From Eubacteriales bacterium (GTDB lineage: Bacteria; Bacillota; Clostridia; Oscillospirales; QAKW01), in the NCBI GenBank assembly GCA_045660845.1, contig JAZREO010000149.1:7416-71415 (forward strand): a stretch of DNA of 64,000 bases, written 5' to 3'. Every line of letters begins with the position of its first letter. Position 1 is the first letter of the stretch. Positions 22,542 to 61,236 of this stretch are shown in pieces. A program made the position numbers and the translations under genes. The notes beneath the pieces are model-generated. The model did not search any database and was not told where the DNA came from. It saw only the letters and a program-made list of their open reading frames with translations.

Positions 22542-23651
22542 TTAGTTGACCAGAGTCCGCTCGGTCTCAGCATCAAACAGATGGCAATAAGACAGATCCA
22601 GAGCAGCCTTGATAACATCATCGGCAGCAGCAGTGGACTTAGGAGATACGCGGGCAGTAAACTTATTCCCTTCAGTCTCCAGATACAGGTAGGTCTCGGA
22701 GCCCATCAGCTCGGCAACTTCGACATTGCAAGTGATGGTATATTCAGGCATCTTCTGCAGATACTCTTCCTCATCATGAACATGCTCGGGACGAATACCA
22801 AGAATAACGGCCTGACCAACCTTCTCCTTCACTTCATCGTTGATTTTGGACTCAGGCAGCTTCAGGGAGTTGCCGGCGAACTCAACATAGTAGCCGCCAT
22901 CCTTCTCGACCAGCTGAACCTTAACAAAGTTCATCTGAGGAGAACCGATAAAGCCCGCAACGAACATATTGCAGGGATACAGATACAGATTCTGAGGAGT
23001 ATCTACCTGCTGGATCAGACCGTCCTTCATTACAACGATGCGGGTAGCCATGGTCATAGCTTCAGTCTGGTCATGAGTAACGTAAATGAAAGTGGTCTTC
23101 AGGTTATGGTGAATCTTGGAAAGCTCGGTTCTCATCTGAGCACGCAGCTTCGCATCCAAGTTAGAAAGAGGCTCATCAAGCAAGAATACCTTAGGCTCAC
23201 GAACGATAGCACGTCCCAAAGCAACACGCTGACGCTGACCGCCGGACAAAGCCTTCGGCTTTCTGTCGAGCAAATGGCTGATGTCCAGGATCTTGGCAGC
23301 CTCTTCTACTCTTCTCTTGATCTCCTCCTTGGGAGTCTTTCTCAGCTTCAGACCGAATGCCATATTATCGAAGCAAGTCATATGGGGATAAAGAGCATAG
23401 TTCTGGAACACCATTGCGATATCTCTATCCTTAGGAGCAACGTCATTCACCAGCTTATCGCCAATGAACAGCTCACCTTCAGTAATCTCCTCCAGACCAG
23501 CGATCATTCTCAAGGTAGTAGACTTACCGCAGCCAGAAGGACCGACGAGTACCAAAAATTCCTTATCTTCGATCTCCAGATTGAAGTCAGAAACAGCAAC
23601 AACCCCGCCGGGATATCTTTTATAAATGCCTTTCAATGACAAACTTGCCAT
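22542..23651 (-). CDS. msmX: carbohydrate ABC transporter ATP-binding protein (MsmX/MalK/UgpC type), monocistronic
   Basis: 369 aa with Walker A GPSGCGKST, signature LSGGQRQR, Walker B FLLDEPLS and a MalK-type C-terminal regulatory domain. There are no adjacent permease or SBP genes. Confidence 0.9.
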   Translation of the reverse strand: MASLSLKGIYKRYPGGVVAVSDFNLEIEDKEFLVLVGPSGCGKSTTLRMIAGLEEITEGELFIGDKLVNDVAPKDRDIAMVFQNYALYPHMTCFDNMAFGLKLRKTPKEEIKRRVEEAAKILDISHLLDRKPKALSGGQRQRVALGRAIVREPKVFLLDEPLSNLDAKLRAQMRTELSKIHHNLKTTFIYVTHDQTEAMTMATRIVVMKDGLIQQVDTPQNLYLYPCNMFVAGFIGSPQMNFVKVQLVEKDGGYYVEFAGNSLKLPESKINDEVKEKVGQAVILGIRPEHVHDEEEYLQKMPEYTITCNVEVAELMGSETYLYLETEGNKFTARVSPKSTAAADDVIKAALDLSYCHLFDAETERTLVN

Positions 23652-27260: not shown

Positions 27261-29282
27261 TTATTTGCAAAAGATACAAATTGCACAAACGGGAATGAGC
27301 CAAATAGCCTGAAAAGCCAAGATTTGGAGCGCAGTATTAGCAGAATAACCAGCCAGGGCAATGAAAAAGATCAGCGCCAGCGCCAGAATTGAATATAGGA
27401 TCCGTATAATACTGTTGATCTTAAGCGCTGTCAACAGTTTGCTGGCACCGTAAAGGCACGCCATCAATCCACGCGGACCGGTAATAGACCCTATCAGATC
27501 CGGTGAATTTTCCCGCCGTTCCAGCAAAGAGCGGCAGGCTGCGCCGGTTCGCGGAGAGATAAAATGAAAAAGTTCCGGTTGCTCCATTGGATACATTCTC
27601 TGCAAAAGATTCTTATCAAACAAAAAATCGTTTGATACAATTCCCACGCTGACCCGCTCGTCTTCCGCCAGGTGAACCGCCGCTTCCGTATGCTTATTGC
27701 GTTCATAGCTTGCAATAAAAATCCCTGCCGGTAACTTTTGATACGCCACATAGACTGGGAATCGGCAATCCTTTAATTGCATCTCCATCAACGGTTTCTG
27801 GAAGTTAATGTTAAATTGCTCCATCAACTTCCGGTTTCCCACTAAAAACATTTTACTATGGATCAGGCAGGAATATCCCATTCCCTCATGATAATAAATA
27901 TCATCGACACGGGGCAAAGTAACACTATTCAAATCGATCATTTTCAAAAAGAGTGGCTTTAGCGGGGTGCCGACACAATTAAAGAGCGCGGCGATATTAG
28001 TAATCAGATCATCGATCTGCGTATCCCCCATTGCCTTGACCCCTTGAAGAAGAACAGCATCTTTACCGAGGAAATCTTCTTCTTTAATAACGAGAAGGTC
28101 TGCATCCTCCAATTCCTTAGCAGACTGCGCCGAGGTCAAAATGCCGCCGTTTCTACGCATTTTTTTGCCGTTTTTCGCAATAGAAGATGCATAATAATAA
28201 CGCGAAAAAAGAGGAACAGAGAGAGCAAGGGATGCCGCAGGAAAAAGCAATGCCTCTCCCCAACCTGCCAACTGAGAAACCGCAATGGTTCCAGCGACAA
28301 TAACAAGCAGTAGTATAAACCAAAGATGTTGAAATTTGCGATCCCAATCAAAATCGCTGTAGCTATGTTCAATATATTTCGTCACCAGTCCGGTAGGATG
28401 GGCATACATGATCTCGCCGCCCTCACCAGTTTCCAGGATCAGATCATTATTAGATTCGCAGGATGAGGGCACCGAAACTGTAAGCTTATCGCCAGAGGAA
28501 GCAATAAACTTAAAATTCTTTTTAATATTGGCTGCGATCTTCTTTTTTGCTACCACATTGAAATAAAGCCCCAGCGCCAACATCGGTTCAAAATTCAAGT
28601 TATACTGAAAAAGGTTCGGATTGATCAACCCGGCGACTCGAACAACCACAAGAGCGATCGCAAGCAGCGCAAGAAGAGCATCGGTATCGGCACGCGCACG
28701 CAAAAGCCGTATAAGTCCTTGGGCAAAAATGCCGAAGGAGACAATAATACAGAGGATGTCCACAGCCAGAAAGGCAATATCAAACCAGACAGAGTCTGCG
28801 TCCCCACCGAACAGAACCGGATGAAATCCGGCAATAAAAAGATAGAGGGAAACCATACTCAGCAAAAACAGAAAAACCATTTTTACCGCCATTTTACCGA
28901 CGATGTTTTTCAGATCACGGTAAATCTCATCCCGGTCCTCTTCCGCCTCAAAATCCTCAATATCCTCCGGATCATCGTCATAGATAGCAGAGCGGGCCGG
29001 CGGCTCATCCTGCTCATCGTTCTCGTCCTCTTCCCCGTCAATCAAACGGCGAATGACCGATTTTTCCTTAGGATTAGATATATTCTGTTTTTCGCCTTTG
29101 ATCTGATCAAAAACACTTTCATCAATGGTGAAATCGCTGCTTTCTTCAGATTCTTCCGTACCATTTCGCTTTTCGATCAACTTCTTGGAGGATTCCACCA
29201 CCTGCGTTTCATGCTGGATGGCATTAATCTTTTCCATGATCTCGTCCAAAGCTGACTTTTGATCTTTTGGTTCAAAATTCAT
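27261..29282 (-). CDS. degenerate P1B-type ATPase homologue (predicted non-catalytic membrane protein)
   Basis: 673 aa with an acidic disordered N-terminus and then TM helices. It is collinear by eye with heavy-metal P-type ATPases (GGILTSAQSAKELEDADLLV..., HEGMGYSCLIHSKMFLVGNRKLM). CPC is replaced by ASL, DKTGT by KEEDF and TGDN by SNDF. Confidence 0.65.
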   Translation of the reverse strand: MNFEPKDQKSALDEIMEKINAIQHETQVVESSKKLIEKRNGTEESEESSDFTIDESVFDQIKGEKQNISNPKEKSVIRRLIDGEEDENDEQDEPPARSAIYDDDPEDIEDFEAEEDRDEIYRDLKNIVGKMAVKMVFLFLLSMVSLYLFIAGFHPVLFGGDADSVWFDIAFLAVDILCIIVSFGIFAQGLIRLLRARADTDALLALLAIALVVVRVAGLINPNLFQYNLNFEPMLALGLYFNVVAKKKIAANIKKNFKFIASSGDKLTVSVPSSCESNNDLILETGEGGEIMYAHPTGLVTKYIEHSYSDFDWDRKFQHLWFILLLVIVAGTIAVSQLAGWGEALLFPAASLALSVPLFSRYYYASSIAKNGKKMRRNGGILTSAQSAKELEDADLLVIKEEDFLGKDAVLLQGVKAMGDTQIDDLITNIAALFNCVGTPLKPLFLKMIDLNSVTLPRVDDIYYHEGMGYSCLIHSKMFLVGNRKLMEQFNINFQKPLMEMQLKDCRFPVYVAYQKLPAGIFIASYERNKHTEAAVHLAEDERVSVGIVSNDFLFDKNLLQRMYPMEQPELFHFISPRTGAACRSLLERRENSPDLIGSITGPRGLMACLYGASKLLTALKINSIIRILYSILALALIFFIALAGYSANTALQILAFQAIWLIPVCAICIFCK

Positions 29283-32508: not shown

Positions 32509-32673
32509 ATGAAACAGACAAAAACGATGGTATTTTCCATGGTCGCCGGCGCTGCTCTGGGTGCAACTGCCAGCATGCTTGCATTGAAGGCCAAGCCCAA
32601 GAAATGTATGACCAAAACAGCCGGCAATGCAATCAAAGCAGTCGGCAACTTTGTGGAACACATGAACTTCTAA
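32509..32673 (+). CDS. small hypothetical protein (54 aa)
   Basis: MKQTKTMVFSMVAGAALGATASMLALKAKPKK... has one hydrophobic helix and is followed directly by a terminator. The RBS is weak (GAAAGGGA). Confidence 0.45.
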   Translation: MKQTKTMVFSMVAGAALGATASMLALKAKPKKCMTKTAGNAIKAVGNFVEHMNF

Positions 32674-32674
32674 A

Positions 32675-32710
32675 GAAAAAAGAGGCAACATAATCGTTGC
32701 CTCTTTTTAA
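32675..32710. terminator. bidirectional terminator closing the 8-gene ABC-type operon
   Basis: agaggcaac/ataatc/gttgcctct flanked by AAAAAA and TTTTT. Confidence 0.8.
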
Positions 32711-32717
32711 ATAAGTC

Positions 32718-33722
32718 TTAACCGACGATACCGCTTCGAGCAATAGATTCAGTAAATTTCTTCTGCAAGATGATAAACGTTATCAACAGCGGAGAAATAT
32801 ACAAAATGATACCTGCCCGCAAAATCGGATAAAGCGAGAGTGCGTCATCGCCGCTATAAGCACCGCCGTAACCGGTCATGTTGCTATGCATGTTACCCAG
32901 CGCATTGGGCAGGGTCTCCATGTTAGGCAAGAACATCGGTACGGTGTAATAATCGTTCCAATACCATACGATACAGAACAAGAATACTGTAACAAACGCA
33001 GGACCGGTATTAGGAACAAGGATCCGCAAGAAGGTCTTGATAGCACCGCATCCATCGATGTAGGCAGCCTCTTCCAGCTCCTTGGGGAACCCACTGAAGA
33101 ACTGGCGGTAGACAAAGACAAAAAGTCCGCTCTTCAGACCGGCTGCAAACAATGCCGGCAGGATGAAGCTCCAAAGAGAGTCCGTCAATTCCAAAAAAGG
33201 CTCGTTGATCCAACCCATTGCGTTCATTGCGGTTGCAATGTAGAGAGGGTCAAACATCCGGAAGCTGGTGTACAGCGGGATCATGATGGTGGAAGGCGGT
33301 ACAATAATGGTGATCAATACCAGGAAGAACAAAATGTTCTTACCGCGGAATTTAAATCTTGCAAAACCGTAACCAGTTAAAGCGCAGGAGCATACCTGCA
33401 GAAGCGTAGGCCAGAGAGAAATATTAAAGGTATTCTTCAGGGCCTCAGGGAAATTCAGAACCTCCCAGGCAGCCTTGAAGTTCTCCATGGTAAAATGCTT
33501 CGGGATGTAGATAATGGTTGTATCATACATATCCACCGGGTCACGAATCGCCTGAGAAATACTGAAGATCAGAGGGTATAAAATAATGTAGGAAAGACCG
33601 ATCAAAATCATGAAAACAGTAAGATTACCAATGAATTTGCTAGCCATAAAGCCCCACATTCTCTTATCAGCCTTTTTACTGTTTTCGCCAAACTGATGTT
33701 TAAATGCTTTGATGATTTGCAT
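32718..33722 (-). CDS. carbohydrate ABC transporter permease (MalG/CUT1 type), pair 2
   Basis: 334 aa with 6 TM helices and an EAA loop (EEAAYIDGCGAIKTFLRILVP). Confidence 0.85.
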   Translation of the reverse strand: MQIIKAFKHQFGENSKKADKRMWGFMASKFIGNLTVFMILIGLSYIILYPLIFSISQAIRDPVDMYDTTIIYIPKHFTMENFKAAWEVLNFPEALKNTFNISLWPTLLQVCSCALTGYGFARFKFRGKNILFFLVLITIIVPPSTIMIPLYTSFRMFDPLYIATAMNAMGWINEPFLELTDSLWSFILPALFAAGLKSGLFVFVYRQFFSGFPKELEEAAYIDGCGAIKTFLRILVPNTGPAFVTVFLFCIVWYWNDYYTVPMFLPNMETLPNALGNMHSNMTGYGGAYSGDDALSLYPILRAGIILYISPLLITFIILQKKFTESIARSGIVG

Positions 33723-33740
33723 ATTTTTTTACCCCCTTTC

Positions 33741-35144
33741 TTAATCTGAGCCTTTTCCGATCAGCTTAAACAAACCGAAAACAACACCGATAATAACCAA
33801 AATGACCAAGAAGAATGTCCAAGACGATGCGGCCGCTGCGCCAAAGTTAAAGGTACTGTTGATGTACTTATCAATCTCGATCAGCACCGCATTATCCGTA
33901 TCGCTGAAGGTATCAACGATGGTATAAACGATATTAACCAAGATGATGGGAGCCACATTCGGAAAGGTAATCAACCAGAAGGTTTCCCACGCAGTTGCAC
34001 CCTCAACATCACTGGCTTCATAGAGCGAGGGAGAAATACCCTGCAATGCAGCCAGGAACAGCAGGATCTGGATACCGGAATCCCAAACAACGTCGAAAAT
34101 CCGATCCGCAACCATAGACATATAGGTAGTCAAGGTCTCATTCAAACCAAGTTCTGTCAAGAAGTCTGCTGCATTAGCTACTTCAAACAGTACGCCGTTA
34201 CCGACATTACCTTCCATAACTTCGGTGGCATCGTTGGTGGAATTAAATGTTGTCATAACAACACCGGTGGTGACGATAACCGGCAGGAAGAAGATCGCAC
34301 GAACCAGACCACGCCCCGCAAACTTACGATTCAACAGCACTGCAACAAACAAGCTGAAGATCAGAATGATAGGTACATTGACTGCCAGATCGAGCAAGGT
34401 ATCCAGCAACGCCTGCAGATAGGTGGCGCCACCGGTCAAGATATCCTTAAAGTTTCCAAGACCATACCATGTGCATTTATAGTTTTCGAAAACGGAAACC
34501 TTTGAAAATGCATATTGCAGAGACTGAAAGCAAGGGGTTGCAAAGAACAGCAAGAAACCAATGAACCAGGGTAATACAAACATAAATCCGGTAAACGCCT
34601 GCTTGGATTCATAAGAAATACCACGCTTATTCTTTTTGGCTTTTTTCTTTTCCGTATTCTGAACAACAGCTTTCTTTACATCGCTCTTTTTCGTTTCTTC
34701 ATTCGCCTCGATCTCAGCCAGACGCTGCTCTCTTTCCTTTTTAGCAGCACGGTTTTTCTTCACCGCTTCAAGCTGCTCGGGAGTCAACTGAGAAAGCTGA
34801 TCCACAATCCGCGCCTTCTGATCGTCGGAGAGCTGCTTTTTCTGGATTTCCTCCAGCCGCTTCTGCTCCGCCTCTTCCTCGGCGGTCTGCTGAGCCGCCT
34901 GCTCCGCCTCGATCTTAGCAGCCTTGGCGGCACGCAGAGCAGCGATTTGCTCCGGAGTCATCTGAGCCAGACGCTCCTTGGCAATTTCCTGAGCGCGCTT
35001 TGGGTTTTGCTTTGCAATCGTCGCGGCGATCTGCTTATTATCGCGCTCTTCTACTTTTTCGGGTTCGACAGTTTCGGGGACATCGTTTGCCTCAACCTGA
35101 GCCTCTAAAACTTCATTTTTCAATTCTTCATTTTGTTTGCTCAT
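33741..35144 (-). CDS. carbohydrate ABC transporter permease (MalF/CUT1 type) with ~175-aa charged N-terminal extension, pair 2
   Basis: 467 aa. The C-terminal ~290 aa form a typical permease (EAA loop YEASDVEGATAWETFWLITFP). The N-terminal part is K/E/A/Q-rich with a repeated xTPEQ(I/L)xA(L/V)-x3-AAK motif. Confidence 0.8.
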   Translation of the reverse strand: MSKQNEELKNEVLEAQVEANDVPETVEPEKVEERDNKQIAATIAKQNPKRAQEIAKERLAQMTPEQIAALRAAKAAKIEAEQAAQQTAEEEAEQKRLEEIQKKQLSDDQKARIVDQLSQLTPEQLEAVKKNRAAKKEREQRLAEIEANEETKKSDVKKAVVQNTEKKKAKKNKRGISYESKQAFTGFMFVLPWFIGFLLFFATPCFQSLQYAFSKVSVFENYKCTWYGLGNFKDILTGGATYLQALLDTLLDLAVNVPIILIFSLFVAVLLNRKFAGRGLVRAIFFLPVIVTTGVVMTTFNSTNDATEVMEGNVGNGVLFEVANAADFLTELGLNETLTTYMSMVADRIFDVVWDSGIQILLFLAALQGISPSLYEASDVEGATAWETFWLITFPNVAPIILVNIVYTIVDTFSDTDNAVLIEIDKYINSTFNFGAAAASSWTFFLVILVIIGVVFGLFKLIGKGSD

Positions 35145-37369
35145 GCGTTAGCACCTCCCACCACTGTAAAGTCTTTGGCGCCGATCTTAACACCGTTCAC
35201 GGTGGTCTCAGCGGTATTATAGTTGACATATACCTTTGCGCCGTTGCTGAAGGTCGTGATCTTCACATCCTCAGAAATGATCTCATAGTTCGTGATCTCA
35301 CTGCTTCCTACAGCGTCATAAACCTTCTTCAGACGCTTATAGTTTGCAAGCATATCATCATAATGATCATCCAGCTCACATGCATAAGAGGACGTAAATT
35401 TGGTATCCTGGAAGGATGTAGATTCAGCATCCATCAGCAGGTAATAAATGCTCATACCGGTCTCTGCCAGTTTGAGAAGCAGGTCATCCTGTTCAGAATT
35501 CAGATTGACAGGAGTACTCGACAGGTTCACATAGCCACGGAACACGATCTGATAGAAGGGAACTTCCTGCAGAGCGATATTATTATGACTTCCGTAAACA
35601 GGAGCCTCCAAGACATTATCGACATAAGAGATCGCATAGCCATTACCACCCGTGGTATTGACAATGCCGTTCTCCCCTGCTGTTTCAGCCGCTGCTTTAA
35701 AGATGCTCGTCATCGAATCCACAGACTGATCACGGGTACTTACATCCTTCAAATTATAAGCGCAATAAACCGCATCACCAATAGAATTAAAGGAATAACT
35801 CTTGATCTCCCAATCGGAAGCATTCTCAAGGAAATCCTCAGCATAACCATACATATGGTTGGGATGGATCAACTGATAAAGGATTTCGCTGGTCGTTCTC
35901 GAACCTGCTGCGTAAATTCTCGACTTATAGATCGCAACCGGAGAGGAATCCAGACCGTAGGCAGTATTTTTAAACTTCTTAATATCGGAGTTGCTTCCAT
36001 AAAACGCCTGAAGATCTGCATCAAAAGAAAGATGATAATTATCGATACCATTCGCCTTCGCAATCAGGCTTTGGAGAGCCTTCTTCCCACCCAGCTTAGA
36101 GTTGGGAGATATCTCGGTAGATACAGTCGTTTCCATGCCACCGGACGCCCAGCCCAGATAATTGATATATGCTTTATCAACATTATCGGCAGCCAGACGA
36201 TCAATCAATTCTTCCGCTTCCTTATAAGTAGTCAGAGCATCCTGTCCAGTATAAGGAATGCCAAGAAAATGTTTGGATTTCTTAACGGAACCATAAAGAG
36301 TGATCGCCAATGTATTGGATACAGAGTCTTTCACCTTGGTCATTTTCTCTTCATTGATCAGGTACTCTCTGTACTTTTCCGCCATACCAATATAATTGGC
36401 ATTTTCACCATCCAGAAAATAATATCTTGCAATATAGTTTTCGGGAAGAAAGTCGGAATAGTAGGACCCGCTGCCCGCCTGACCGGTGGAGCTACGACGG
36501 CTCTGGGTATCACGGACATTCACAGTTGTAAACATCGTATTATAACTGTTTTTATAGTTGCTGATATACGCATGCAGATCAGTAACAGCGGCACCGCTCT
36601 CAATAATATTGAGATATGCCTCGCCATTCTTCACCATGCCGTATACTGGTAAACGAAGGGGTTCGTTCCAGTTGGCAAAATAATTTGAAGTGGCAACTTC
36701 AGTGGGGTTGGGAGCATAGAACTGACCCTCACCCTCAAGACCGAACTCATAAGCATTCAGTACGCCGCGGTTAAACTCCATCAGAGAACCGCTACCGTCT
36801 GGAATCAAGCCATAACCGGTATCGTTCAGACCTGCTGCGCCAAAGAACTGGAATAGCTTGACGGAAAGAACGCGAGTATCACTCAGTTCCTTAATCCGGT
36901 CAATCATCAGTTCCATATGGAGATAATCCTCTTTCAAGGAAAGCTTAACAGGGATAGTAAAGTCCATGTTATCTCCTTTGAAATAGAAGGTCATGATCCA
37001 ATCCTTACCCTGACGCTCCGTAATGGTAGCGGCACTGGCCGAGGTGACTGTATAGCTCTTATAGCTCTCTGTCAGATAAGTAACTGCGATTTTGCTGGAA
37101 AGCTCTTCGTAGCTTTCACCCTGGGCAATCTTATCAGACTCCCAATCGAGAGGATTGGAATACCAAACGCGACCAGTCTTTTGGTTCATGACACCAAAGG
37201 TGCCGGCTGTACTGTCAATATATAGTGCCAAATTTGCATTCTCATTGACCAGCTGATAATTTCCGGGTACATCCAGGGTCGCCGGAGCAGCAGAAGTAGA
37301 AAAAGTGATCGCAGAAACGCAGGAAAGGAACAGCACTAACGATAATAAGATGGAAATTGTCTTTTTCAT
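35141..37369 (-). CDS. secreted 742-aa protein of unknown function (possibly DUF5696-like / glycoside-hydrolase-like)
   Basis: Signal peptide MKKTISILLSLVLFLSCVSAITFSTSAA. I recognise no catalytic motif. The family name is from memory only. It has a 4-nt overlap with the downstream permease. Confidence 0.6.
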   Translation of the reverse strand: MKKTISILLSLVLFLSCVSAITFSTSAAPATLDVPGNYQLVNENANLALYIDSTAGTFGVMNQKTGRVWYSNPLDWESDKIAQGESYEELSSKIAVTYLTESYKSYTVTSASAATITERQGKDWIMTFYFKGDNMDFTIPVKLSLKEDYLHMELMIDRIKELSDTRVLSVKLFQFFGAAGLNDTGYGLIPDGSGSLMEFNRGVLNAYEFGLEGEGQFYAPNPTEVATSNYFANWNEPLRLPVYGMVKNGEAYLNIIESGAAVTDLHAYISNYKNSYNTMFTTVNVRDTQSRRSSTGQAGSGSYYSDFLPENYIARYYFLDGENANYIGMAEKYREYLINEEKMTKVKDSVSNTLAITLYGSVKKSKHFLGIPYTGQDALTTYKEAEELIDRLAADNVDKAYINYLGWASGGMETTVSTEISPNSKLGGKKALQSLIAKANGIDNYHLSFDADLQAFYGSNSDIKKFKNTAYGLDSSPVAIYKSRIYAAGSRTTSEILYQLIHPNHMYGYAEDFLENASDWEIKSYSFNSIGDAVYCAYNLKDVSTRDQSVDSMTSIFKAAAETAGENGIVNTTGGNGYAISYVDNVLEAPVYGSHNNIALQEVPFYQIVFRGYVNLSSTPVNLNSEQDDLLLKLAETGMSIYYLLMDAESTSFQDTKFTSSYACELDDHYDDMLANYKRLKKVYDAVGSSEITNYEIISEDVKITTFSNGAKVYVNYNTAETTVNGVKIGAKDFTVVGGANA

Positions 37370-37388
37370 TGTTAATCTCTCCCCTTTC

Positions 37389-38072
37389 CTAAGATAGTAT
37401 TCTCATACGACATTCCGTATAGATCGTCATAAAGAATACATATAGCTGCTGAATCAGCACAACGAACAAGAAGATCAAGAAGAAGATGATCGCCATTGCA
37501 GCCAAGGATGCGATCAAATTGAGCAGTGTACCCCAGAAGGAGTAGTTATGGATCGTCATTGCGCCATAGAACATCAGTACAACAAACCAAATGGTGCAGC
37601 AGACACCAACAATCGAAACAAAGGTAAACTCACTTTCGATCAAAAATCTGGAAAGGAATGTACTTAACAGATTATAAAAGATCAGCGGAGTCAAATTATA
37701 GCAGGTCATAACATAAATGTCGACCAAGCGACCTTCGCCGTTCAGCAAGGTGCAAAGCGCCCAGTTTGCCACAACAAACAACAGGACCATCAAACCGGAG
37801 GTGCACAGTACAGTCAGGATATTAAAATCCTTAATCCGCAGGGTGGAGTAAATAAACCCGGTGGCGACCTCCTGAATAATAGCGGAAACTGTAAAAGCCA
37901 AAAGAAGCAAAGTGGCATAGATAGGAGAACCATTCTTCTTGAATTTTAGGTCTTCCATCGTATCAACAGGATGGGTGACCATCAAGAACGGATTCTTTTT
38001 CCCAGCAAATAAACGTTCGCTCATTGCCTTCAGGAAAACATAGATGTTACTCCATAATTTCTGTATCGTCAT
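37389..38072 (-). CDS. Yip1-domain polytopic membrane protein
   Basis: 227 aa from ATG 38072 (GGAGG 8 nt upstream) with 5 predicted TM helices. The N-terminal cytoplasmic segment and TM layout are typical of bacterial YIP1-family proteins. Confidence 0.6.
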   Translation of the reverse strand: MTIQKLWSNIYVFLKAMSERLFAGKKNPFLMVTHPVDTMEDLKFKKNGSPIYATLLLLAFTVSAIIQEVATGFIYSTLRIKDFNILTVLCTSGLMVLLFVVANWALCTLLNGEGRLVDIYVMTCYNLTPLIFYNLLSTFLSRFLIESEFTFVSIVGVCCTIWFVVLMFYGAMTIHNYSFWGTLLNLIASLAAMAIIFFLIFLFVVLIQQLYVFFMTIYTECRMRILS

Positions 38073-39609
38073 GATCTCCACCTCCCTGCTTTTTTTCCTT
38101 AATTACAGTAATAATTTTATTACCAAAGATACGCCAAAGAATCACCAGCAAGACCAACACAACCAGCAAGGTCATGATCAGGTCAAAGGAATCGGCAATC
38201 ACCGCTTCTCTATACAGCGAATAGGCATCCTGGTAATTCATGCGGTCATTGGCAATCTTAAAGTGATTCAAGGCATCTTCATAGCGCCCAAACTGATAAT
38301 AGACCTTGCCAAGACCGATATGTGCAAGCTCACAGTTGGCATTATCCTTCAAGATTACATCCCAATACTTTTCAGCCTCGGTATAAAGCCCCTGATCATA
38401 AAGCAATATGCCGTCATGGAGGGTACGACCGTGCTGCGTAAGGCCATATACGGTGATTGAACCAAAATGGGAGTCAAGGATCAATGTTTTCTTCCCAAGC
38501 TTCGCAATCGCAACAGGCTTATAAAGGAAACCCTGCTGCTTGCCGTTGCCACCGTACATAAAGGTCATGTTGCCTTCCGAATCATATTCGAAAATCTTGC
38601 AAAGGTTTGAATCCAGCATGGTGATAAAACCGTCTGCATCAACTGCAACATCTGTAAAGATGTTACCCTCTGTCTTGGTCACGCGACGCTGAAGATCACC
38701 GTAGGTCTTAGACAGAGTTTCGTCGACCTTTTGCGTGCTCTTTGCCAGAGGATCAAGGATATTGTTGCCCAAGAAGTTCATCTTGATCAACTGCTCGGTG
38801 TTGGAATCCTCGGTGGCCGCGATAACCGAATAAACAAAACCATATTCATCAACAACCAGGTTGGAAAATTCGGTAGGTACAAAGGTCACAAAGGAAACAT
38901 CCGCATCGCTGCCCAAAAGGGAACGATACATACGACGCCACGCCAGAGCCACCATGTCCGTCATGGACATCTGGACATCCGGAGCTCCGAAATAGCGAAG
39001 GAATGTGCCCTTTTCATTAAATTCCATAATACCGTCCAAGGCACCCTGAGAGATTACATAGAGAGACATGTTCTTTGCAATTGCAATCTTAGAGGGCTTA
39101 AATTCACCGCTGAAAAGATCAGAATTCGGCGCACCAACTGTCTGGACGATCTTACCACTCTTATCCTTATCCAGCTTGATGATCTGGCGGTTGCCGGTGT
39201 CGCAAACATAGATATAACCATACTTATCAACAACAAGGCTTTCCGCCAGTTTCATCGTATAAGGCTTGCCGTTGGCGGTAAGGGTTGAGAGTGTCTTGAT
39301 ATGTTTAAAATTGGAATCAAAAATATGTATACGAGGTGTATTTTCGCTTCCGTAATAATCCAAAATATAGATTTCATTCTGCGGGCTGACATAGAGATCA
39401 ACCGCGTTGGTGATCTTCCCGATCCCCAGGTCTTCTCCATAGTAAACCTTTTCCGGAGTATAACCGGAGGGAGTTTCAACCGCTTCACCGTAGTAGTTAT
39501 AATTGTAGGTATTGAACGCAATATAAGCCGAGGAGGGCATCGCCAGCATAGTTGCAAGGATCACCATGATCATTGCAACGGCGCCGACTTTCATAAATCT
39601 CTTTTTCAT
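38047..39609 (-). CDS. secreted NHL-repeat beta-propeller protein with C-terminal TPR and TM anchor
   Basis: ATG 39609 lies 8 nt after AAGGAGG. It has a signal peptide and repeated NHL-like blades (IYILDYYG, GYIYVCDTGNRQIIKLD, SLYVISQG, GFITMLDSNLCKIFEYD). The C-terminus has TPR (AHIGLGKVYYQFGRYEDALNHF), a TM helix (LIMTLLVVLVLLVILW) and a short cytoplasmic tail. Confidence 0.7.
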   Translation of the reverse strand: MKKRFMKVGAVAMIMVILATMLAMPSSAYIAFNTYNYNYYGEAVETPSGYTPEKVYYGEDLGIGKITNAVDLYVSPQNEIYILDYYGSENTPRIHIFDSNFKHIKTLSTLTANGKPYTMKLAESLVVDKYGYIYVCDTGNRQIIKLDKDKSGKIVQTVGAPNSDLFSGEFKPSKIAIAKNMSLYVISQGALDGIMEFNEKGTFLRYFGAPDVQMSMTDMVALAWRRMYRSLLGSDADVSFVTFVPTEFSNLVVDEYGFVYSVIAATEDSNTEQLIKMNFLGNNILDPLAKSTQKVDETLSKTYGDLQRRVTKTEGNIFTDVAVDADGFITMLDSNLCKIFEYDSEGNMTFMYGGNGKQQGFLYKPVAIAKLGKKTLILDSHFGSITVYGLTQHGRTLHDGILLYDQGLYTEAEKYWDVILKDNANCELAHIGLGKVYYQFGRYEDALNHFKIANDRMNYQDAYSLYREAVIADSFDLIMTLLVVLVLLVILWRIFGNKIITVIKEKKQGGGDHDDTEIME

Positions 39610-39622
39610 GTCGTGCACCTCC

Positions 39623-40480
39623 TTAACCCTTGATACCAGCGTGCGCCATCGTCTTTACCGTACTACTCTGAGCAAAGATAAAGAAGATGATCGGCGGTAT
39701 CATCATCAACACCGATGCTGCATATGCCTCACCGGCACGGGCAACGCTTCCTTCTGACGTGATCTGGCTCAAAGCAGTCGGCAGAGTCTTCAGCGTCTCG
39801 GTATAAATGTAGGAACCGGCGGTAGCGTTCCAGTTACGCTGGAACGAGAAGATCGCCAAGGTCAGCCATGCCGGTTTGATAGAAGGCATCACAATCGACC
39901 AAAGAATTTTCCAGTCGCCTGCACCGTCGATACGAGCAGCCTCGATCATTGCATTGGGGATCTCCGCCATATTCTGCTTCAAAAGGAAGACGCCCATCGT
40001 TGCAGAAATCTCAGGCAGCCAGTATGCAAAATAAGTATCAACGATTCCCAGGTAAGACATTACCAGATAGACAGGAATCTCGGTAACACCGCCGGTAAAA
40101 AGCAGGGACCATACAATCAGGTTAAAGAGTACCGTCTTGCCAGGAAACTTATTCTTAGCCAGCGGGTATGCACACATGGCGGCAGAAAGAATATGGACAA
40201 CTGTACCGATAATCGTATTCGCCAGGGTATTGAATACATATCTGGAGAACGGAACCCAAGAGGTAGACGTCAGGTCAAACAACTTTCTGAAGCTCATCAG
40301 GGTGGGGTTCTTGGTAAAGAACCGAGGCGGGAAGATAAACAACTCGTTGTACGGCTTGATGGACTGCACAATGGCATAGACCAAAGGCAATGACATGAAA
40401 GCAGCATAGAGAGCGAGCAAAAGATAGGTTGTTATGTCACCGACGACAGAAGCCTTTGTTCTTCTTAATTTTGTAGACAT
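39623..40480 (-). CDS. carbohydrate ABC transporter permease (MalG/CUT1 type), pair 1
   Basis: 285 aa with EAA loop IEAARIDGAGDWKILWSIVMP. Confidence 0.9.
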   Translation of the reverse strand: MSTKLRRTKASVVGDITTYLLLALYAAFMSLPLVYAIVQSIKPYNELFIFPPRFFTKNPTLMSFRKLFDLTSTSWVPFSRYVFNTLANTIIGTVVHILSAAMCAYPLAKNKFPGKTVLFNLIVWSLLFTGGVTEIPVYLVMSYLGIVDTYFAYWLPEISATMGVFLLKQNMAEIPNAMIEAARIDGAGDWKILWSIVMPSIKPAWLTLAIFSFQRNWNATAGSYIYTETLKTLPTALSQITSEGSVARAGEAYAASVLMMIPPIIFFIFAQSSTVKTMAHAGIKG

Positions 40481-40500
40481 TTTTCGTTCACTCTCCTTTC

Positions 40501-41463
40501 TTAATCATGCGAGAACCGAGCAAGCAGTTTATTGATCAGCGTCTTACTCAGGATCATCATCGCGAACAGCACAACGGCGATCGCAGACGCGTAACCCAAC
40601 TCAAACCGGACATGACCAAAGTCCGAAATATGCAGAACCAGCGTATGACCCGCATAGTCAACAGACGGGTTACCCAGCAGCGCAGAGGAAATTGTTCCCA
40701 CTGCAAAGGAGGAGGAAATCTGCATAACCGCACCGAACATCAGCATACCGCCCATCTGAGGCAAGGTAATGAAAAACAGTTCCTGGAACCGGTTTCGGAC
40801 ACCGTCGATAGCGCCCGCCTCTGCAAGAGAGGGATCCAGGTTCTGCAAACCTGCGATAAAGGACAAGAAGCTGGTACCCAGCGAACACCACAACTGAACA
40901 ATGATAACAATATTCAGCATATAAGCGGTATTCTTCAGCCATGCAATCGGTTCATCAATAACACCCAGGTTCATCAGAACAGAGTTAACAAGTCCGTACA
41001 TATCACTGCTGAAGAGGTACTGGAAAATGAAGTAAACATTCGCAAGGGTCGGTGCATAGAACACCACAGTAAAGAACGCTCTGGCAACAGGATGTAGATC
41101 ATTGATAAACCACGCAAAGATAAAGCAGAGCAAGTAGCTTACCGGACCGGTAATGATTGCAAACTTCAGCGTATTTTTCAAAGCGATCATGAAAACGCTG
41201 TCTTCCAGGAACATTCTCAGGTAGTTATCCCATCCGATAAAAACGGGGGTATTCAAAATGTCGTAACGGGTAAAAGAAAGAACGATAGACGCACCGATCG
41301 GCAAAATAGTAAACAAGGTGAAGAAAACCATAAAGGGCAGGATCAGCAGATAGTTGATCTTATTATCCTTCATCTCTTGCCATGTTAATGCCGCACGCTC
41401 GGAGAAGGTCAATCTTTTCTTTTTTAATAATTCAATTTCACGTTGCTTAGATGTAGAAGCCAT
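40501..41463 (-). CDS. carbohydrate ABC transporter permease (MalF/CUT1 type), pair 1
   Basis: 320 aa from ATG 41463 (TAATG overlap with the SBP stop), with EAA loop AEAGAIDGVRNRFQELFFITLP. Confidence 0.85.
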   Translation of the reverse strand: MASTSKQREIELLKKKRLTFSERAALTWQEMKDNKINYLLILPFMVFFTLFTILPIGASIVLSFTRYDILNTPVFIGWDNYLRMFLEDSVFMIALKNTLKFAIITGPVSYLLCFIFAWFINDLHPVARAFFTVVFYAPTLANVYFIFQYLFSSDMYGLVNSVLMNLGVIDEPIAWLKNTAYMLNIVIIVQLWCSLGTSFLSFIAGLQNLDPSLAEAGAIDGVRNRFQELFFITLPQMGGMLMFGAVMQISSSFAVGTISSALLGNPSVDYAGHTLVLHISDFGHVRFELGYASAIAVVLFAMMILSKTLINKLLARFSHD

Positions 41464-44400
41464 TAATCTCTCGCCTCCTCCGGTACAGACAGATGATATT
41501 CGGATCGCTTGCGCCAAATCTCATCGTTTATTTCATTATTATAATAGAATAGTTTTTCACGCGGGTTTGCGTTGTTGTTCACAACATTACGGAAAGCGTT
41601 GATTACGTTACGGCTGACATAATAACCGCCGACCAACTCGGGAGTCTCGCGGGTCCACTGACGCTGCGCCTTAATAATGGCAGCCTCCTCACTGGACCAC
41701 TTGATCTTTTCAAACGCTTCCAGGTTCGCGGTGGAATATCTCGCAACAGAACCGATTGCCATTTCAACACGGTTACCGTAGTCAGCAGCGATATCAGCAG
41801 AGGTCCACCATTTTAGGAAGGTCCATGCATCCTGCAGCTGCTGCTCAGGATCTGCAGCCTTTTTAATGGTTCTCTCAATGATCATGCATCCGCTCATACC
41901 GCTGGATTGGTCAGTTCGGTTGATCACGCCGGTCTTCTCATCTAAGATACCGGGCATGGGTGCAACGCTCCACAGTCCATTTAATTCAGGAGCAGATTCC
42001 TGAAGATACGTAATACTGGAATAACCCTGAACGACCAAGGGCATCTCACCATTTCTGAAACGGCTGTACCAACTATAGTCAGTGGGCAGGTCATACTGCA
42101 GATAATAGCGGGTCCAGCGCTCAAAAGCGTCGATTGAATACTGCTCTGTGAAGTTGGTGGCAGTGCCATCCTCTCTATAAGGAGTATGCCCGCTCTGCAG
42201 GATCAGAGTATAGAATGTCTCACCGCTGGCATTGGAATCCAGACCGACAGTCATGTTATTTGCCTGAATATACGGAAGAATATTATCCAGATCATCCCAA
42301 GTATTCGGCACGCTGATGCCCAACTCAGCAAAGATATCGCTGCGGTAGAACAACAGCTTGAAGTCCTGCGTTTCAGGCAAAGCAAAGATCTTATTAATGG
42401 CATTGCCTTTTTCATCGTTAGTGCTCAAAGTATAGGGAGTCAATGCATAAGTCGAAAAACGACTGGCAACTTCGTTAAAGTCGCTGAACTGTGTCAAATC
42501 GTAAACTGCATTACGATAGCCCAAGTTCATCGGCTCAGAGCGGCTGACATGCAAAGCGATATCGGGACCGCGTCCGGCGATAATCGCTTTCTGCAAAATG
42601 CCCAGCGGTACCAAGCCAACGTTTACAGAGATATCGGTCTCCGGAGTAAAATAGTTGGTACAGAGGGTTTTCAGCACAGTGGCCTGGTCACGACCAGTAC
42701 CTACCCAAGCGGTCAACGTACGACCGCTGGAGCTTTCGGCGCCAACAGAGGTGTAATCATCCACAAAGGAGGAAACAAAGGCACGCACTTCATGAGAAAG
42801 ACCTTCCCAGAAATTAGCCTTTTGGCGAGTGGGCTCCATTCCCTCACCAGTGAAGATCAACTTATCAAACTGAACCGGCTGGTCACGCAGATCCAGCATC
42901 CAGGAGCTGAGGGTACTTATATTATCTTTAAAGGTAGAAAGACGATCGGGGATCGCATAAGGCTTCTTAATGAAATCGGCGATCTGCGTTTCCAAAGTAC
43001 TGATAATGGACGCAGAACCCAGGTTGCCGTTAATGGCAATAACCTGGTCCTTAATACCGAGAAGATCGTTATAAACAGAAGTGAACATTTCTTCCAGGCC
43101 GGCGATCTTCTGATCCAACTCATAGTCACGGTAGGTATCGGGGGAAGTACCGGTAACCATGATGATCTTACGATAGATGTAGTTCAATTGATAGACCACA
43201 TCTTCAGCCTCACGGCTGACCTGCGCCATATCGCCGATCACAACCTCCATGGAGAGGGTGTGTTCCCCTTTGGTCAGATAAAACTTAAAGTCATAGGAAT
43301 CACCGTTCTCATCCTCGCCGCCAAGTACTTTATACTGATAACCAGTTCCAAACGGGAAGCCAATCGTATTCGCTTCTTCAAAAGGAACCTCGCCATCAAT
43401 GTAAAGACGTCTGTAGGAGGTAGAATCCTCGACATAAGACTGACGGTAACGGACACCGATCGTGTAATAACCGTCTGCAGGAATATTGATATTCCAGTTT
43501 ACAGTCTGACCGGTTACATTCCAGTTTTCACCGCCGAGTACATTCAGACGGGTCTTGCTGATGCTGTAGGGAGATACCTTCGGGTCGCTCCGATCATAGG
43601 CGGGCTGGATCAAGGATTCGCTCTTGTCTACAAAATCCTCTGTTTCAAGTACATATTCTTCACTGACACTTGCGGCACCGTTTGCATCATTCTTTGCAAT
43701 GTATTCCGCATAAGTGATTTCCTCGCCATTATTATATAGACGGAGATAATCCAAAGCAAGAACTCCGGTGTTGAAGGTCAGCGTGATGGTATGTACGCCT
43801 TCGGACAAGTAGAACTTGACTGCATCATCAAAGACACCATCGGGATCCCGGATGTCCTTGGTCAGCCACTTTGCAGCCTCGACTTGCTTAGAATAAAGCT
43901 CATTACCGACAGAGTCAAAATTGTTCTCGTCCTCCTCATCGGTCCAGTTCCGTTTCAGGAAGAAACGATCCGCATCATTATGGGGAAGCTTGCCATCGAT
44001 CATGACTGCCAGCTCATAGTCTTTTCCGTTACCGTCGCCCAGCAGCGGGAAATATTCCAAACCAAGCGCATACATACCCGTCTTGGAAACATTGATCTGA
44101 TAGGTCAGAGAACCAGTGCCGGTAGTGACCAGAACCTGATCCCGTCCCTCATAGGTCGCTTTAATCTCATGAGGAGCAGTCGCAGATGTGATCTGAGTGG
44201 CTTCCAGACGGATCTCCGGCATGACCGTATCATACGCTTGATACTCCGAATAATAGTCGACATATCTGCCGCTGCGGTAAAAACCAACAACCGACACCTG
44301 GGTCTCATTATCGGTCCCCTCGGGTGTTACTGTTGCTGCAGGTGGATTCGCACCGCTTGCCGCCTCATTGTCTGCCGAGTCTGTCGCTACGGTTTCACCC

Positions 44401-44528
44401 AATGCGTCAGCACCGGCTTCCGACTCTTCGTCCGCAAAGACGAAAGTAGTCATGGAGAGCGCCATAATCAGTACCATTATGAGCGCCAGAAAAGACCGCA
44501 AAACAGAACATGAATTCTTGCCTTTCAT
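41463..44528 (-). CDS. 1021-aa extracellular solute-binding protein with two N-terminal carbohydrate-binding-module-like repeats
   Basis: It has a signal peptide and a low-complexity linker, followed by two ~150-aa beta-sandwich-like repeats ending in (L/V)xEGxHT(I/L)(T/S)(L/M). A coiled/helical region follows. The C-terminal ~430 aa form a family-1 SBP domain (LTAWVGTGRDQATVLKTLCTNYFTPETDISVNV...). Confidence 0.75.
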   Translation of the reverse strand: MKGKNSCSVLRSFLALIMVLIMALSMTTFVFADEESEAGADALGETVATDSADNEAASGANPPAATVTPEGTDNETQVSVVGFYRSGRYVDYYSEYQAYDTVMPEIRLEATQITSATAPHEIKATYEGRDQVLVTTGTGSLTYQINVSKTGMYALGLEYFPLLGDGNGKDYELAVMIDGKLPHNDADRFFLKRNWTDEEDENNFDSVGNELYSKQVEAAKWLTKDIRDPDGVFDDAVKFYLSEGVHTITLTFNTGVLALDYLRLYNNGEEITYAEYIAKNDANGAASVSEEYVLETEDFVDKSESLIQPAYDRSDPKVSPYSISKTRLNVLGGENWNVTGQTVNWNINIPADGYYTIGVRYRQSYVEDSTSYRRLYIDGEVPFEEANTIGFPFGTGYQYKVLGGEDENGDSYDFKFYLTKGEHTLSMEVVIGDMAQVSREAEDVVYQLNYIYRKIIMVTGTSPDTYRDYELDQKIAGLEEMFTSVYNDLLGIKDQVIAINGNLGSASIISTLETQIADFIKKPYAIPDRLSTFKDNISTLSSWMLDLRDQPVQFDKLIFTGEGMEPTRQKANFWEGLSHEVRAFVSSFVDDYTSVGAESSSGRTLTAWVGTGRDQATVLKTLCTNYFTPETDISVNVGLVPLGILQKAIIAGRGPDIALHVSRSEPMNLGYRNAVYDLTQFSDFNEVASRFSTYALTPYTLSTNDEKGNAINKIFALPETQDFKLLFYRSDIFAELGISVPNTWDDLDNILPYIQANNMTVGLDSNASGETFYTLILQSGHTPYREDGTATNFTEQYSIDAFERWTRYYLQYDLPTDYSWYSRFRNGEMPLVVQGYSSITYLQESAPELNGLWSVAPMPGILDEKTGVINRTDQSSGMSGCMIIERTIKKAADPEQQLQDAWTFLKWWTSADIAADYGNRVEMAIGSVARYSTANLEAFEKIKWSSEEAAIIKAQRQWTRETPELVGGYYVSRNVINAFRNVVNNNANPREKLFYYNNEINDEIWRKRSEYHLSVPEEARD

Positions 44529-44656
44529 AAACTACCTCCAAGTTGAATTGAACAGTATCTCAAGCTGCAGGCAATCGATTTAGTGCAATTGAACAGTGTT
44601 TCATGAACAAATTACACAAAAATCGATCGCGCGCTTTCATCCATACTATCATTGGG

Positions 44657-44685
44657 ATTATAGCATAATATATATATGATTTCAA
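44657..44685 (-). promoter_or_regulatory. sigma-A promoter of the 8-gene ABC-type operon
   Basis: The minus strand reads TTGAAA - 17 nt - TATAAT, leaving a ~125-nt leader before ATG 44528. Confidence 0.5.
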
Positions 44686-44770
44686 TGATTTTTTTAATTT
44701 TTTACAAATAAATTGCTAATTTTTTTATAATAAACGAACTTTAAGAGAACAGTTAACATAATGATTTGTT

Positions 44771-48444: not shown

Positions 48445-48531
48445 TGGTGCGGATAAGAGGACTTGAACCTCCACCGAGTTGCCCCGACTAGAACCTGAAT
48501 CTAGCGCGTCTGCCAATTCCGCCATATCCGC
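48445..48531 (-). tRNA. tRNA-Leu (anticodon CAG)
   Basis: The reverse complement GCGGATATGGCGGAATTGGCAGACGCGCTAGATTCAGGTTCTAGTCGGGGCAACTCGGTGGAGGTTCAAGTCCTCTTATCCGCACCA has anticodon loop TTCAGGT, a long variable arm and encoded CCA. Confidence 0.9.
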
Positions 48532-49131: not shown

Positions 49132-49216
49132 TGGTGCGAAAGACGGGACTTGAACCCGTACGGTGTTAACCACACGCCCCTCAAACGTGCGCGTCTGCCA
49201 GTTCCGCCACTCTCGC
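49132..49216 (-). tRNA. tRNA-Leu (anticodon GAG)
   Basis: The reverse complement GCGAGAGTGGCGGAACTGGCAGACGCGCACGTTTGAGGGGCGTGTGGTTAACACCGTACGGGTTCAAGTCCCGTCTTTCGCACCA has anticodon loop TTGAGGG, a long variable arm and encoded CCA. The terminator hairpin at 49103-49131 lies just downstream. Confidence 0.9.
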
Positions 49217-59256: not shown

Positions 59257-59731
59257 ATATCGTAATATCCTCAAATCTACAAGGAATAACCTTTTCCAGA
59301 TCCATGGGATCCAGAAGGATCTGCGCGCCGATCCGCCCACCGCTGATGATGATTTCATCAAAAAGCTGGGCGGTTTCGTCAATAACAGTAGGGAACTGCT
59401 TTTTCATCCCGATAGGAGTGCAGCCGCCGCGAATATAGCCGGTCAGCCCAAAGATCTCCTTCACATGAATCAGCTCCACCGACTTTTCGCCCACAGACTT
59501 CGCCGCCTTTTTCAGATCCAGTTCTTCTGCAATGGGCAATACAAATACATAGTGCGCACCGCTCTTCCCCACTGCCACCAGCGTTTTGAAGGAACATTCA
59601 TAATCCTGTCCCAGCTGGTCTGCCACATGGATCGCATCGACGAATTCCTCGCAGGTATAAAGATTAACCTTAAAAGGAATCCCTCTCTGCTCTAAAATGC
59701 GCATGGCATTGGTTTTGGTTTCCTTTGCCAT
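59255..59731 (-). CDS. ybaK: Cys-tRNA(Pro)/Cys-tRNA(Cys) deacylase YbaK
   Basis: 158 aa of the YbaK/EbsC family (TNAMRILEQRGIPF, GYIRGGCTPIG). It has a TAATG overlap with the tyrS stop. Confidence 0.85.
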   Translation of the reverse strand: MAKETKTNAMRILEQRGIPFKVNLYTCEEFVDAIHVADQLGQDYECSFKTLVAVGKSGAHYVFVLPIAEELDLKKAAKSVGEKSVELIHVKEIFGLTGYIRGGCTPIGMKKQFPTVIDETAQLFDEIIISGGRIGAQILLDPMDLEKVIPCRFEDITI

Positions 59732-60951: not shown

Positions 60952-61236
60952 ATTTTTCTCCCTTTCCATCATAAAAGCCCTCTGCTCCCCTATGGGAGCA
61001 GAGGGCAAAATTTCTTTTGCGGTACCACCTCTGCAGCGGGCATTCTTCGCAAAACACCCCTCAGCGAGTAGTTGACTACTACAGCCCCTTTAACGGAGGG
61101 CAACCGCCTGCACCTACTGAAGGTTCAGCGCAGAAGCTCCGGGATGTATTCGCACGCACCTGCCCGCTCGCCTCACACCGACCGGCTACTCTCTTTACGG
61201 CGGTTGCATGCTACTTCTTCCCATCATTGCTGTTAC
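60952..61236 (-). promoter_or_regulatory. T-box leader (tRNA-Tyr sensing, specifier UAC) of tyrS
   Basis: The minus strand has AGAGAGUAG (Stem I) and a specifier loop GCGAAUACAUCC with UAC at plus 61146-61148. It also has the T-box GCAGAGGTGGTACCGC (plus 61019-61034). The terminator GCCCTCTGCTCCC/ATAG/GGGAGCAGAGGGC + TTTT follows, and its 5' arm overlaps antiterminator sequence. Confidence 0.9.

Follow-up and report, generated by a model that had tools for sequence, protein, structure and literature searches.

A widespread colinear cassette with two predicted CUT1 oligosaccharide importers and NHL/TPR, Yip1-family and DUF5696 proteins in a Eubacteriales bacterium

The DNA analysed here, referred to as the window, is a 64,000-nucleotide stretch of contig JAZREO010000149.1 from a Eubacteriales bacterium (assembly GCA_045660845.1), and the subject of this work is a block of eight tightly spaced open reading frames (ORFs) located on its minus strand, from position 44528 down to 32718. 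In the order of reading, the block encodes a giant membrane-tethered binding protein of 1021 aa (41463–44528), permeases 1F (P1F, 40501–41463) and 1G (P1G, 39623–40480) of the ATP-binding cassette (ABC) type, an extracytoplasmic NHL beta-propeller and TPR protein (38047–39609), a Yip1-family polytopic membrane protein (37389–38072), an exported DUF5696 protein (35141–37369), and a second pair of permeases, 2F (P2F, 33741–35144) and 2G (P2G, 32718–33722). The binding-protein and P1F genes are joined through a TAATG sequence with a 1-nt overlap (the shared A) at position 41463, and the DUF5696 and P2F genes through an ATGA, giving a 4-nt overlap at 35141–35144; the NHL and Yip1 genes overlap by 26 nt, with the yip1 ATG at 38072. 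The remaining junctions are short spacers of 20 nt between P1F and P1G, 13 nt between P1G and the NHL gene (ATG at 39609), 19 nt between Yip1 and DUF5696, and 18 nt between P2F and P2G. The ORF list and translations reproduced the coordinates and all junctions given in a preliminary description of this locus.

The block belongs to a cassette that is widespread and strictly colinear. Scanning genomes with DUF5696 as the anchor yielded 62 loci, and together with two plasmid loci a set of 64 was annotated using the proteins of the window. All eight genes are present in the same order in 34 of the 64 loci, while in another seven the cassette consists of seven genes, with NHL and Yip1 fused; 21 loci are cut by contig ends and carry their remaining genes in the right order. 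The giant binding protein led independently to five further loci, all of them with the whole cassette; in total, the same order is seen in all 46 loci whose contigs extend far enough. DUF5696 was found outside the cassette in none of 69 loci. Gene order is kept at 22–30% identity and across phyla. Start-stop overlaps are conserved as well: 46 of 56 loci show a 4- or 1-nt overlap between DUF5696 and P2F, and 29 of 47 show an overlap between the genes of the binding protein and P1F. Chance adjacency of two operons was considered and is ruled out by the same order across related loci. The three middle genes showed no variation that was independent of the permeases, in agreement with the original proposal of a single unit. 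The hosts include uncultured gut Clostridia (from ruminants, deer, rabbits, and humans), Acutalibacteraceae, Ruminococcaceae, Butyrivibrio, Roseburia, and Defluviitaleaceae, as well as Paenibacillus, Cohnella, and Treponema. In one metagenome-assembled genome (L009, 2826–5914), two overlapping ORFs of 760 and 269 aa take the place of the single giant binding-protein gene, owing to a frameshift or an assembly error.

The genomic surroundings of the cassette were examined for the window's clade (42–84% identity) and for more distant relatives. Within the clade, the cassette occupies a position of conserved synteny between the nicotinate phosphoribosyltransferase (NAPRTase) gene and the genes of a P-type ATPase and a SpoU methylase. 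The initial view of the block as accessory-looking in an otherwise housekeeping window is not upheld, since its location between housekeeping genes is itself conserved in this lineage. Distant relatives carry nearby genes of glycoside hydrolase (GH) families GH43, GH8, GH115, GH113, GH36, GH65, GH3, GH39, GH31, and GH123 and of a fucosidase, and LacI, AraC, or two-component regulators adjoin the cassette. In about half of the distant loci an ordinary binding protein of 420–530 aa is encoded straight after permease pair 2. No homologue of a second binding protein was found within the window, where P2G is followed by a terminator and housekeeping genes. The presence of only one binding protein, pointed out in the preliminary description, is therefore true of the window but is a peculiarity of its clade, given that roughly half of the distant relatives encode this second, ordinary one.

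The giant binding protein was analysed by Pfam search, AlphaFold2 (AF2) modelling, and Foldseek comparison. In the model (pLDDT 84), an N-terminal transmembrane (TM) helix and some 55 aa of disordered tether are followed by two beta-sandwiches, a stalk of three helices, and, at the C-terminus, a fold of about 430 aa. The Pfam family SBP_bac_8 matches residues 645–917 (1.6e-13), and residues ~553–1021 superpose on oligosaccharide-binding proteins with target-normalised TM-scores of 0.72–0.81 (Foldseek matches 5yse, 9xf5, 5f7v, and 3k01). The structural matches of this C-terminal fold are binders of sophoro-, cycloisomalto-, manno-, and cello-oligosaccharides, cycloalternan, and acarbose. A profile built from residues 89–435, covering the two beta-sandwiches, matches carbohydrate-binding module family 35 (CBM35), namely 5x7g (CITase, 1.4e-8), 2w47 (7e-4), and CsxA (3e-3); with the single sequence the CBM35 match falls under the Pfam cutoff. 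What had been noticed earlier as CBM-like repeats can thus be specified, from the model and the profile match, as two CBM35-like modules, which could bind glycan.

The four permease genes had been read as two MalF/MalG-type pairs, and permease models match all four of them. P1F is a MalF/UgpA-like protein with six TM segments and an EAA motif at residue 215; it has no Pfam match, and is recognised by the NCBIfam UgpA, PotB, and GlcT models (UgpA, 1.9e-17). The MalG/UgpE-like P1G has the EAA motif at residue 180 and matches BPD_transp_1 (1.6e-9) and UgpE (1.3e-21). In the second pair, the MalF-like P2F, assigned by Pfam and NCBIfam models and a TM scan, has six TM segments and the EAA motif at residue 376, and the MalG-like P2G has it at residue 217, with matches to BPD_transp_1 (9e-15) and UgpE (1.6e-19). 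Altogether, the EAA coupling motif is found in four of four permeases and Pfam BPD_transp_1 in three of four, and the hydrophobic segments of all four are as expected for such permeases. The window thus holds two of the features of CUT1 importers, namely full permease pairs, here two, with the BPD_transp_1 fold and EAA motifs, and a class I binding protein, of which it has one.

Pairs 1 and 2 share only 23–24% identity, and classification always puts each of them at its own place in the cassette. A recent duplication of one permease pair is ruled out by this low identity and the consistent position-specific classification; by sequence comparison, the two pairs are old paralogues and ancient partners of the cassette. 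P2F carries an N-terminal extension of about 180 aa (34600–35144) before the first TM segment, which is strongly charged, rich in Ala, Lys, and Glu, and contains an internal repeat TPEQ.AA...AAK. Only the close clade has this presumably cytoplasmic extension; its P2F proteins are 417–498 aa long, versus about 300 aa elsewhere.

The sharing of one MsmX/MsmK ATPase by CUT1 importers is established in Bacillota. The eight-gene block contains no ATPase gene; this led to its being described as "ATPase-less", which is correct as regards the missing nucleotide-binding subunit gene but is ordinary for CUT1 systems. An orphan gene for a MalK/MsmX-type ATPase (22542–23651, minus strand; domains ABC_tran, OB_MalK, and TOBE_2) lies in the window 9 kb from the cassette and is a candidate energiser in trans. 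In two of the surveyed loci, L002 (Paenibacillus) and L056, an ATPase gene is located directly upstream of the cassette, and the ATPase of the window is 57% and 47% identical to the ATPases of L002 and L056, respectively. It is plausible that the MsmX-type ATPase acts in trans on the cassette permeases, in which case it could power both pairs. The earlier proposal of this protein as the power source is thereby made credible by its identity of 57% to a cassette-adjacent ATPase, while the functional coupling is something that we infer.

The product of the fourth gene has a signal or anchor sequence at the N-terminus and a TM helix at the C-terminus, corresponding to hydrophobic segments at residues 5–23 and 477–495 in the TM scan. 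Its family profile matches the six-bladed NHL propellers of Pizza, the PknD sensor domain, TRIM71, and Thin with E-values from 1e-47 to 1e-28 over multiple stretches, and also matches consensus TPR proteins; as a single sequence it scores 19.5 against the Pfam NHL cutoff of 20, that is, just under it. Because of the C-terminal helix, the propeller and the TPR region lie outside the cell. The next protein belongs to the Pfam family Yip1 (PF04893, 54.6 bits, cutoff 28.6) and has four to five hydrophobic segments (TM scan). Therefore, the earlier assignments of an NHL-propeller/TPR protein with a C-terminal TM segment and of a Yip1-type protein hold on the evidence of Pfam and the family profile. 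A word-index search for Yip1 homologues returned the close clade alone. Proteins of about 700 aa in which NHL and Yip1 are fused, with both domains recognised by Pfam, occur in L002, L045, L068, and L069, and fusions were found in about ten loci in all.

The "742-aa secreted protein" of the preliminary description is indeed exported, but it is not anonymous: it belongs to the Pfam family DUF5696 (PF18952) and is predicted to have a glycosidase fold. The family match is nearly full length (profile positions 14–612 of 612), with an E-value of 7e-147 and 490.9 bits versus a cutoff of 25.6. The family has 7077 representatives at 50% identity (E <= 1e-3), or 4002 at E <= 1e-30; a literature search found no paper mentioning DUF5696 or PF18952. 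In the AF2 model (pLDDT 88, pTM 0.89), a beta-sandwich, a (beta/alpha)8 barrel, and another beta-sandwich follow each other. The top Foldseek matches are all GH129 chains (E-values from 1.8e-33 to 8.5e-27), among them ZgGH129 (1.8e-33) and NagBb (2.6e-28), the two GH129 enzymes of solved structure, followed by GH101, GH31, GH36, and GH97. The identity to GH129 is 13–14%, with a target-normalised TM-score of about 0.7, and profile comparison with the sequences of GH129 chains in the Protein Data Bank (PDB) is colinear over the N-terminal domain, barrel strands 1–3, and the C-terminal domain. The modelled fold is consistent with the structural premise of the processing role suggested earlier, a secreted protein of glycosidase type. 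In the DUF5696 alignment, N221 is confined to the immediate subclade of the window, nearly all other loci having Asp at this position.

The block is framed by a promoter and a terminator, as previously proposed. A sigma-A type promoter, TTGAAA-17-TATAAT with a TG extension (44657–44685, minus strand), scores 11/12 in a consensus scan, and both of its hexamers are invariant in an alignment of 11 genomes of the window's clade. At the other end, a bidirectional intrinsic terminator (~32675–32710) consists of a 13-bp hairpin between a preceding A-run and a following U-run; the hairpin folds at -18.7 kcal/mol (z = -6.0), an energy that none of 200 shuffled sequences reached. It was detected by RNA folding and not called by a simple terminator scan. 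A convergent 54-aa ORF (MKQTKTMVFSMVAGAALGATASMLALKAKPKK...; 32509–32673, plus strand), which has its own ribosome-binding site and stops 2 nt short of the hairpin, shares this structure, which accounts for the terminator being bidirectional. The gene upstream of the block terminates in its own hairpin, so that the block is framed as one unit. A further promoter-like site, TCGACA-17-TATAAT with TG, scoring 11/12, is located within yip1 at 37695–37723 on the minus strand, 326 nt upstream of the DUF5696 start, and could be either an internal promoter or a chance match.

Between the promoter and the first gene lies a leader of about 120 nt (44529–44650, minus strand) with conserved sequence blocks in the 11-genome alignment and a ribosome-binding site GGAGG. 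The leader and promoter region (44529–44690, minus strand) contains a palindrome-like sequence, TGTGCTAT/ATAGTATG, spanning -10/+1, as well as the further conserved blocks TTTTGTGTAATTTGTTCA and ATACTGaTCAAT. A riboswitch or another RNA leader was considered and rejected: no Rfam family was detected in the 5' region, the weak matches there corresponding to the terminator of the upstream gene. No covarying RNA fold was found in the leader in the 11-genome alignment. Since both an Rfam match and a covarying fold are lacking, the conserved blocks and the palindrome are likely to be an operator for a protein regulator encoded elsewhere. As judged by eye, the leader shows only half-site resemblance to a cre/LacI-type operator.

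A locus of the same annotated gene order has been published. The xylan degradation locus (XDL) of Caldicellulosiruptor (Anaerocellum) bescii begins with the operon xloEFG-X-GH129-axoFGE (Athe_0174–0181), in which X is an NHL repeat protein and Athe_0174 is annotated as the binding protein XloE, Athe_0175, 0176, 0179, and 0180 as permeases, and Athe_0181 as the binding protein AxoE; the XDL is described as encoding a pair of predicted CUT1 transporters that would take up oligosaccharides of xylan and of arabinoxylan (PMC8579813). Xylan and Avicel induce all eight genes, which are assigned to the XynR and AraR regulons, and msmK, encoded apart from the XDL, is co-induced (PMC8579813). XynR binds the XDL operator with a measured Kd of 161 nM (PMC12285236), and the C. 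saccharolyticus counterparts, Csac_2419–2412, respond to xylan-rich biomass (PMC5658599). The earlier remark that no characterised importer of such a composition was known is thereby weakened, since a locus of this annotated order is already in print as two predicted xylan-oligosaccharide transporters (PMC8579813, PMC12285236). In a secretome study of Paenibacillus, "GH129" and "CBM35" proteins were noted together (PMC4867992). A literature search found nothing on the combination of Yip1, NHL, and binding protein or on CBM35-bearing binding proteins. Thus, the composition is known as an annotation with a predicted function, but its conserved NHL/Yip1/GH129-like core is uncharacterised and occurs far more widely than the literature suggests.

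Starting from the domain anatomy, conservation, fusions, start-stop overlaps, and carbohydrate context observed here, we consider it somewhat probable that the cassette represents two MsmX-powered CUT1 oligosaccharide importers arranged around an obligatory surface and membrane module of three proteins, NHL/TPR, Yip1, and DUF5696. One transcript of about 11.8 kb would be produced from the conserved sigma-A promoter. The giant binding protein would be held at the membrane by its N-terminal helix and flexible tether, its two CBM35-like modules would keep fragments of hemicellulose-type glycan at the cell surface, and its C-terminal binding domain would hand oligosaccharides to permease pair 1. 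The NHL-propeller/TPR and Yip1 proteins may function as one membrane protein, which would scaffold or position the exported DUF5696 protein, translationally coupled to pair 2, beside this second pair. DUF5696 could then trim or hold oligosaccharides for pair 2, to which many other lineages would give an ordinary binding protein of its own, and both pairs would be energised in trans by the MsmX-type ATPase (22542–23651). On this model the three proteins may physically work with the permeases, and DUF5696 may act on the substrate by trimming or by holding it. A capture and processing machine feeding two permeases, as suggested in the preliminary description, finds backing in the conserved unit, the CBM35-like modules, and the predicted glycosidase fold, while a physical machine, including contact among the cassette proteins, is again what we infer.

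Apart from this last point, several observations weigh against the proposed model, and many of them concern the catalytic competence of DUF5696. In three profile searches of PDB sequences, the strands of DUF5696 that would carry the nucleophile and the acid/base could not be aligned to GH129, and the family alignment contains no invariant carboxylate pair. In NagBb the catalytic nucleophile is Asp D435 and the acid/base is Glu E478; in ZgGH129 the nucleophile is D486, the residue mutated in PDB entry 8rzk. The best-conserved acidic position of the DUF5696 barrel is 537, which corresponds to the Asp in a YSDY motif that follows the fourth strand. At this candidate nucleophile position, 17 of 20 distant loci have Asp, and all 36 clade loci have Ala. 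At position 576, which lies 36–39 residues further on, where the GH101/GH129 spacing would put the acid/base, nearly all DUF5696 members, the window's clade included, have Asn (N576 in the window). The assignment of Ala537 and Asn576 to these roles follows from strand order and spacing, not from superposition. Many members of the window's clade have an acidic residue 4–5 positions ahead of 537, which might make up for Ala537. In the 36 clade loci, Ala537 coincides with the lack of a second binding protein, while of the 20 distant loci 17 have Asp537 and about half have a second binding protein; this association carries no statistical weight, because it reflects a single phylogenetic event.

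The other unfavourable points concern the locus as a whole. The window's clade has neither a glycosidase gene nor a regulator nearby, and all of its assessable loci are without a second binding protein. The equivalence between the window and the XDL is one of identical annotated gene order, not of sequence comparison. Finally, the uncultured Clostridia locus L045 has a half cassette, made up of fused NHL-Yip1, DUF5696, and pair 2, and lacks both pair 1 and the giant binding protein. On this contig (1–11431), a LacI regulator and two 430-aa proteins without a Pfam match come first, then the half cassette, and then two GH43 genes. The half cassette means that the two halves are separable, and suggests that the three proteins together with permease pair 2 form the core unit.

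The separability of the halves bears on the main alternative, according to which two ordinary, independent CUT1 importers merely share a transcript with a glycosidase that is free outside the cell and with a membrane protein unrelated to them, the order being kept because the operon spreads as a block. All four permeases resemble subunits of standard type I importers, pair 2 is followed by a second, canonical binding protein in about half of the distant loci, and the published annotation is of two separate transporters, XloEFG and AxoFGE (PMC8579813); these points, together with the half cassette in L045, make such an arrangement possible, but we regard it as doubtful. It falls short because it explains neither the order, invariant at 22–30% identity, across phyla, and beside many glycosidase sets, nor why pair 2, with no binding protein dedicated to it, has been kept for so long in the window's clade. 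The confinement of DUF5696 to the cassette in 69 loci and the conserved DUF5696/P2F overlap likewise argue against it. At the opposite extreme, the cassette could be imagined as a single Gram-positive "ABC utilisome", in which a Yip1-anchored NHL/TPR platform joins the binding protein and the GH129-like subunit to two translocons, and in which the GH129-like subunit of the window's clade, lacking a nucleophile, would be a non-catalytic glycan receptor that replaces the second binding protein of pair 2. This idea is speculative and, in our opinion, unlikely to be correct.

The NHL-TPR and Yip1 proteins, possibly together with DUF5696, could instead be a sensor or gatekeeper, the PknD-like propeller sensing glycan and modulating the activity or assembly of the transporter. 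The propeller does resemble the extracellular sensor domain of PknD, no dedicated regulator is encoded beside the operon in the window's clade, and the Yip1 protein YknW of Bacillus subtilis is a transporter accessory (PMC4887032). However, NHL-TPR and Yip1 have no cytoplasmic output domain, sensing is not a known function of Yip1 proteins, and relatives have their own LacI, AraC, or two-component regulators beside the cassette, so we think a sensory role quite improbable. Least credible of all is the hypothesis that the cassette serves the envelope of its own cell, in the remodelling or recycling of wall polysaccharide and not in nutrient uptake. It would account for the housekeeping neighbourhood and the constitutive-looking promoter in the clade, that is, for the synteny with NAPRTase and P-type ATPase/SpoU genes, the lack of nearby glycosidase genes or a regulator, and a strong conserved promoter. 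Against it stand the BPD_transp_1 permeases and the oligosaccharide-binding fold, which are hallmarks of importers, the occurrence of distant relatives in plant-glycan utilisation loci, and the induction by xylan of the C. bescii locus of the same annotated order.

The carriers of the cassette include major fibre-degrading Bacillota of the gut, rumen, and soil, as well as the biotechnologically used Caldicellulosiruptor. If the three proteins are integral to both importers, the cassette would represent a common, overlooked Gram-positive coupling of glycan capture, trimming, and uptake at the membrane, and functions would be assigned to three uncharacterised proteins; if they are not, it would be an ordinary pair of sugar importers with passengers. 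This question is directly testable, because the tractable C. bescii, for which expression data have been published, has a locus of the same annotated order.

Other features of the window lie apart from the cassette. A T-box leader (112 bits; 60998–61236, minus strand) is located upstream of a 425-aa ORF (59731–61008), tRNA genes were found at 3515–3585, 48448–48531, and 49135–49216, and a 673-aa ORF (27261–29282, minus strand) between the SpoU methylase and EF-G-like genes has no Pfam match.

Among known systems, the CUT1 importers that share MsmX in B. subtilis (AraNPQ, MdxEFG, GanSPQ, YesOPQ, and YtcQP-YteP) resemble the cassette in their MalF/MalG permeases with EAA motifs, their class I binding protein, the lack of an ATPase gene in the operon, and the location of an orphan MalK-like ATPase gene elsewhere. 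Unlike the cassette, systems of this type have one permease pair and a lipoprotein binding protein of 400–500 aa, and no NHL, Yip1, or GH129-like genes in the operon. DUF5696 shares its three-domain fold with GH129 enzymes, such as the alpha-N-acetylgalactosaminidase NagBb of Bifidobacterium bifidum and the 3,6-anhydro-D-galactosidase ZgGH129 of Zobellia, but, unlike in these enzymes, no conserved Asp/Glu pair was found in it, the two places being taken in the window, as judged by strand position, by Ala537 and Asn576.

In the SusCD "utilisome" of Bacteroidota, surface glycan-binding proteins and a glycosidase are grouped with a transporter in one locus. The similarity to the cassette, known here from its genes, is a functional analogy only, since the SusCD proteins are unrelated, with a TonB-dependent outer-membrane transporter in a Gram-negative envelope. 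A bacterial Yip1-family protein that is encoded with an ABC transporter and works with it is also known from YknWXYZ of B. subtilis, where YknW is an accessory subunit (PMC4887032). However, YknYZ is an exporter of the MacB type and has a membrane-fusion protein, while the cassette encodes type I importers and its Yip1 protein is linked to an extracellular propeller. Compared with the window, the XDL of C. bescii has in addition AxoE, xylanase and xylosidase genes after the operon, and control by XynR and AraR, none of which is found in the window; it lists no separate Yip1 gene, which is presumably fused. In other respects the two loci are alike, both being single operons without an ATPase gene in which a binding protein, two permeases, an NHL protein, a GH129-like protein, and two further permeases follow each other in the same order.

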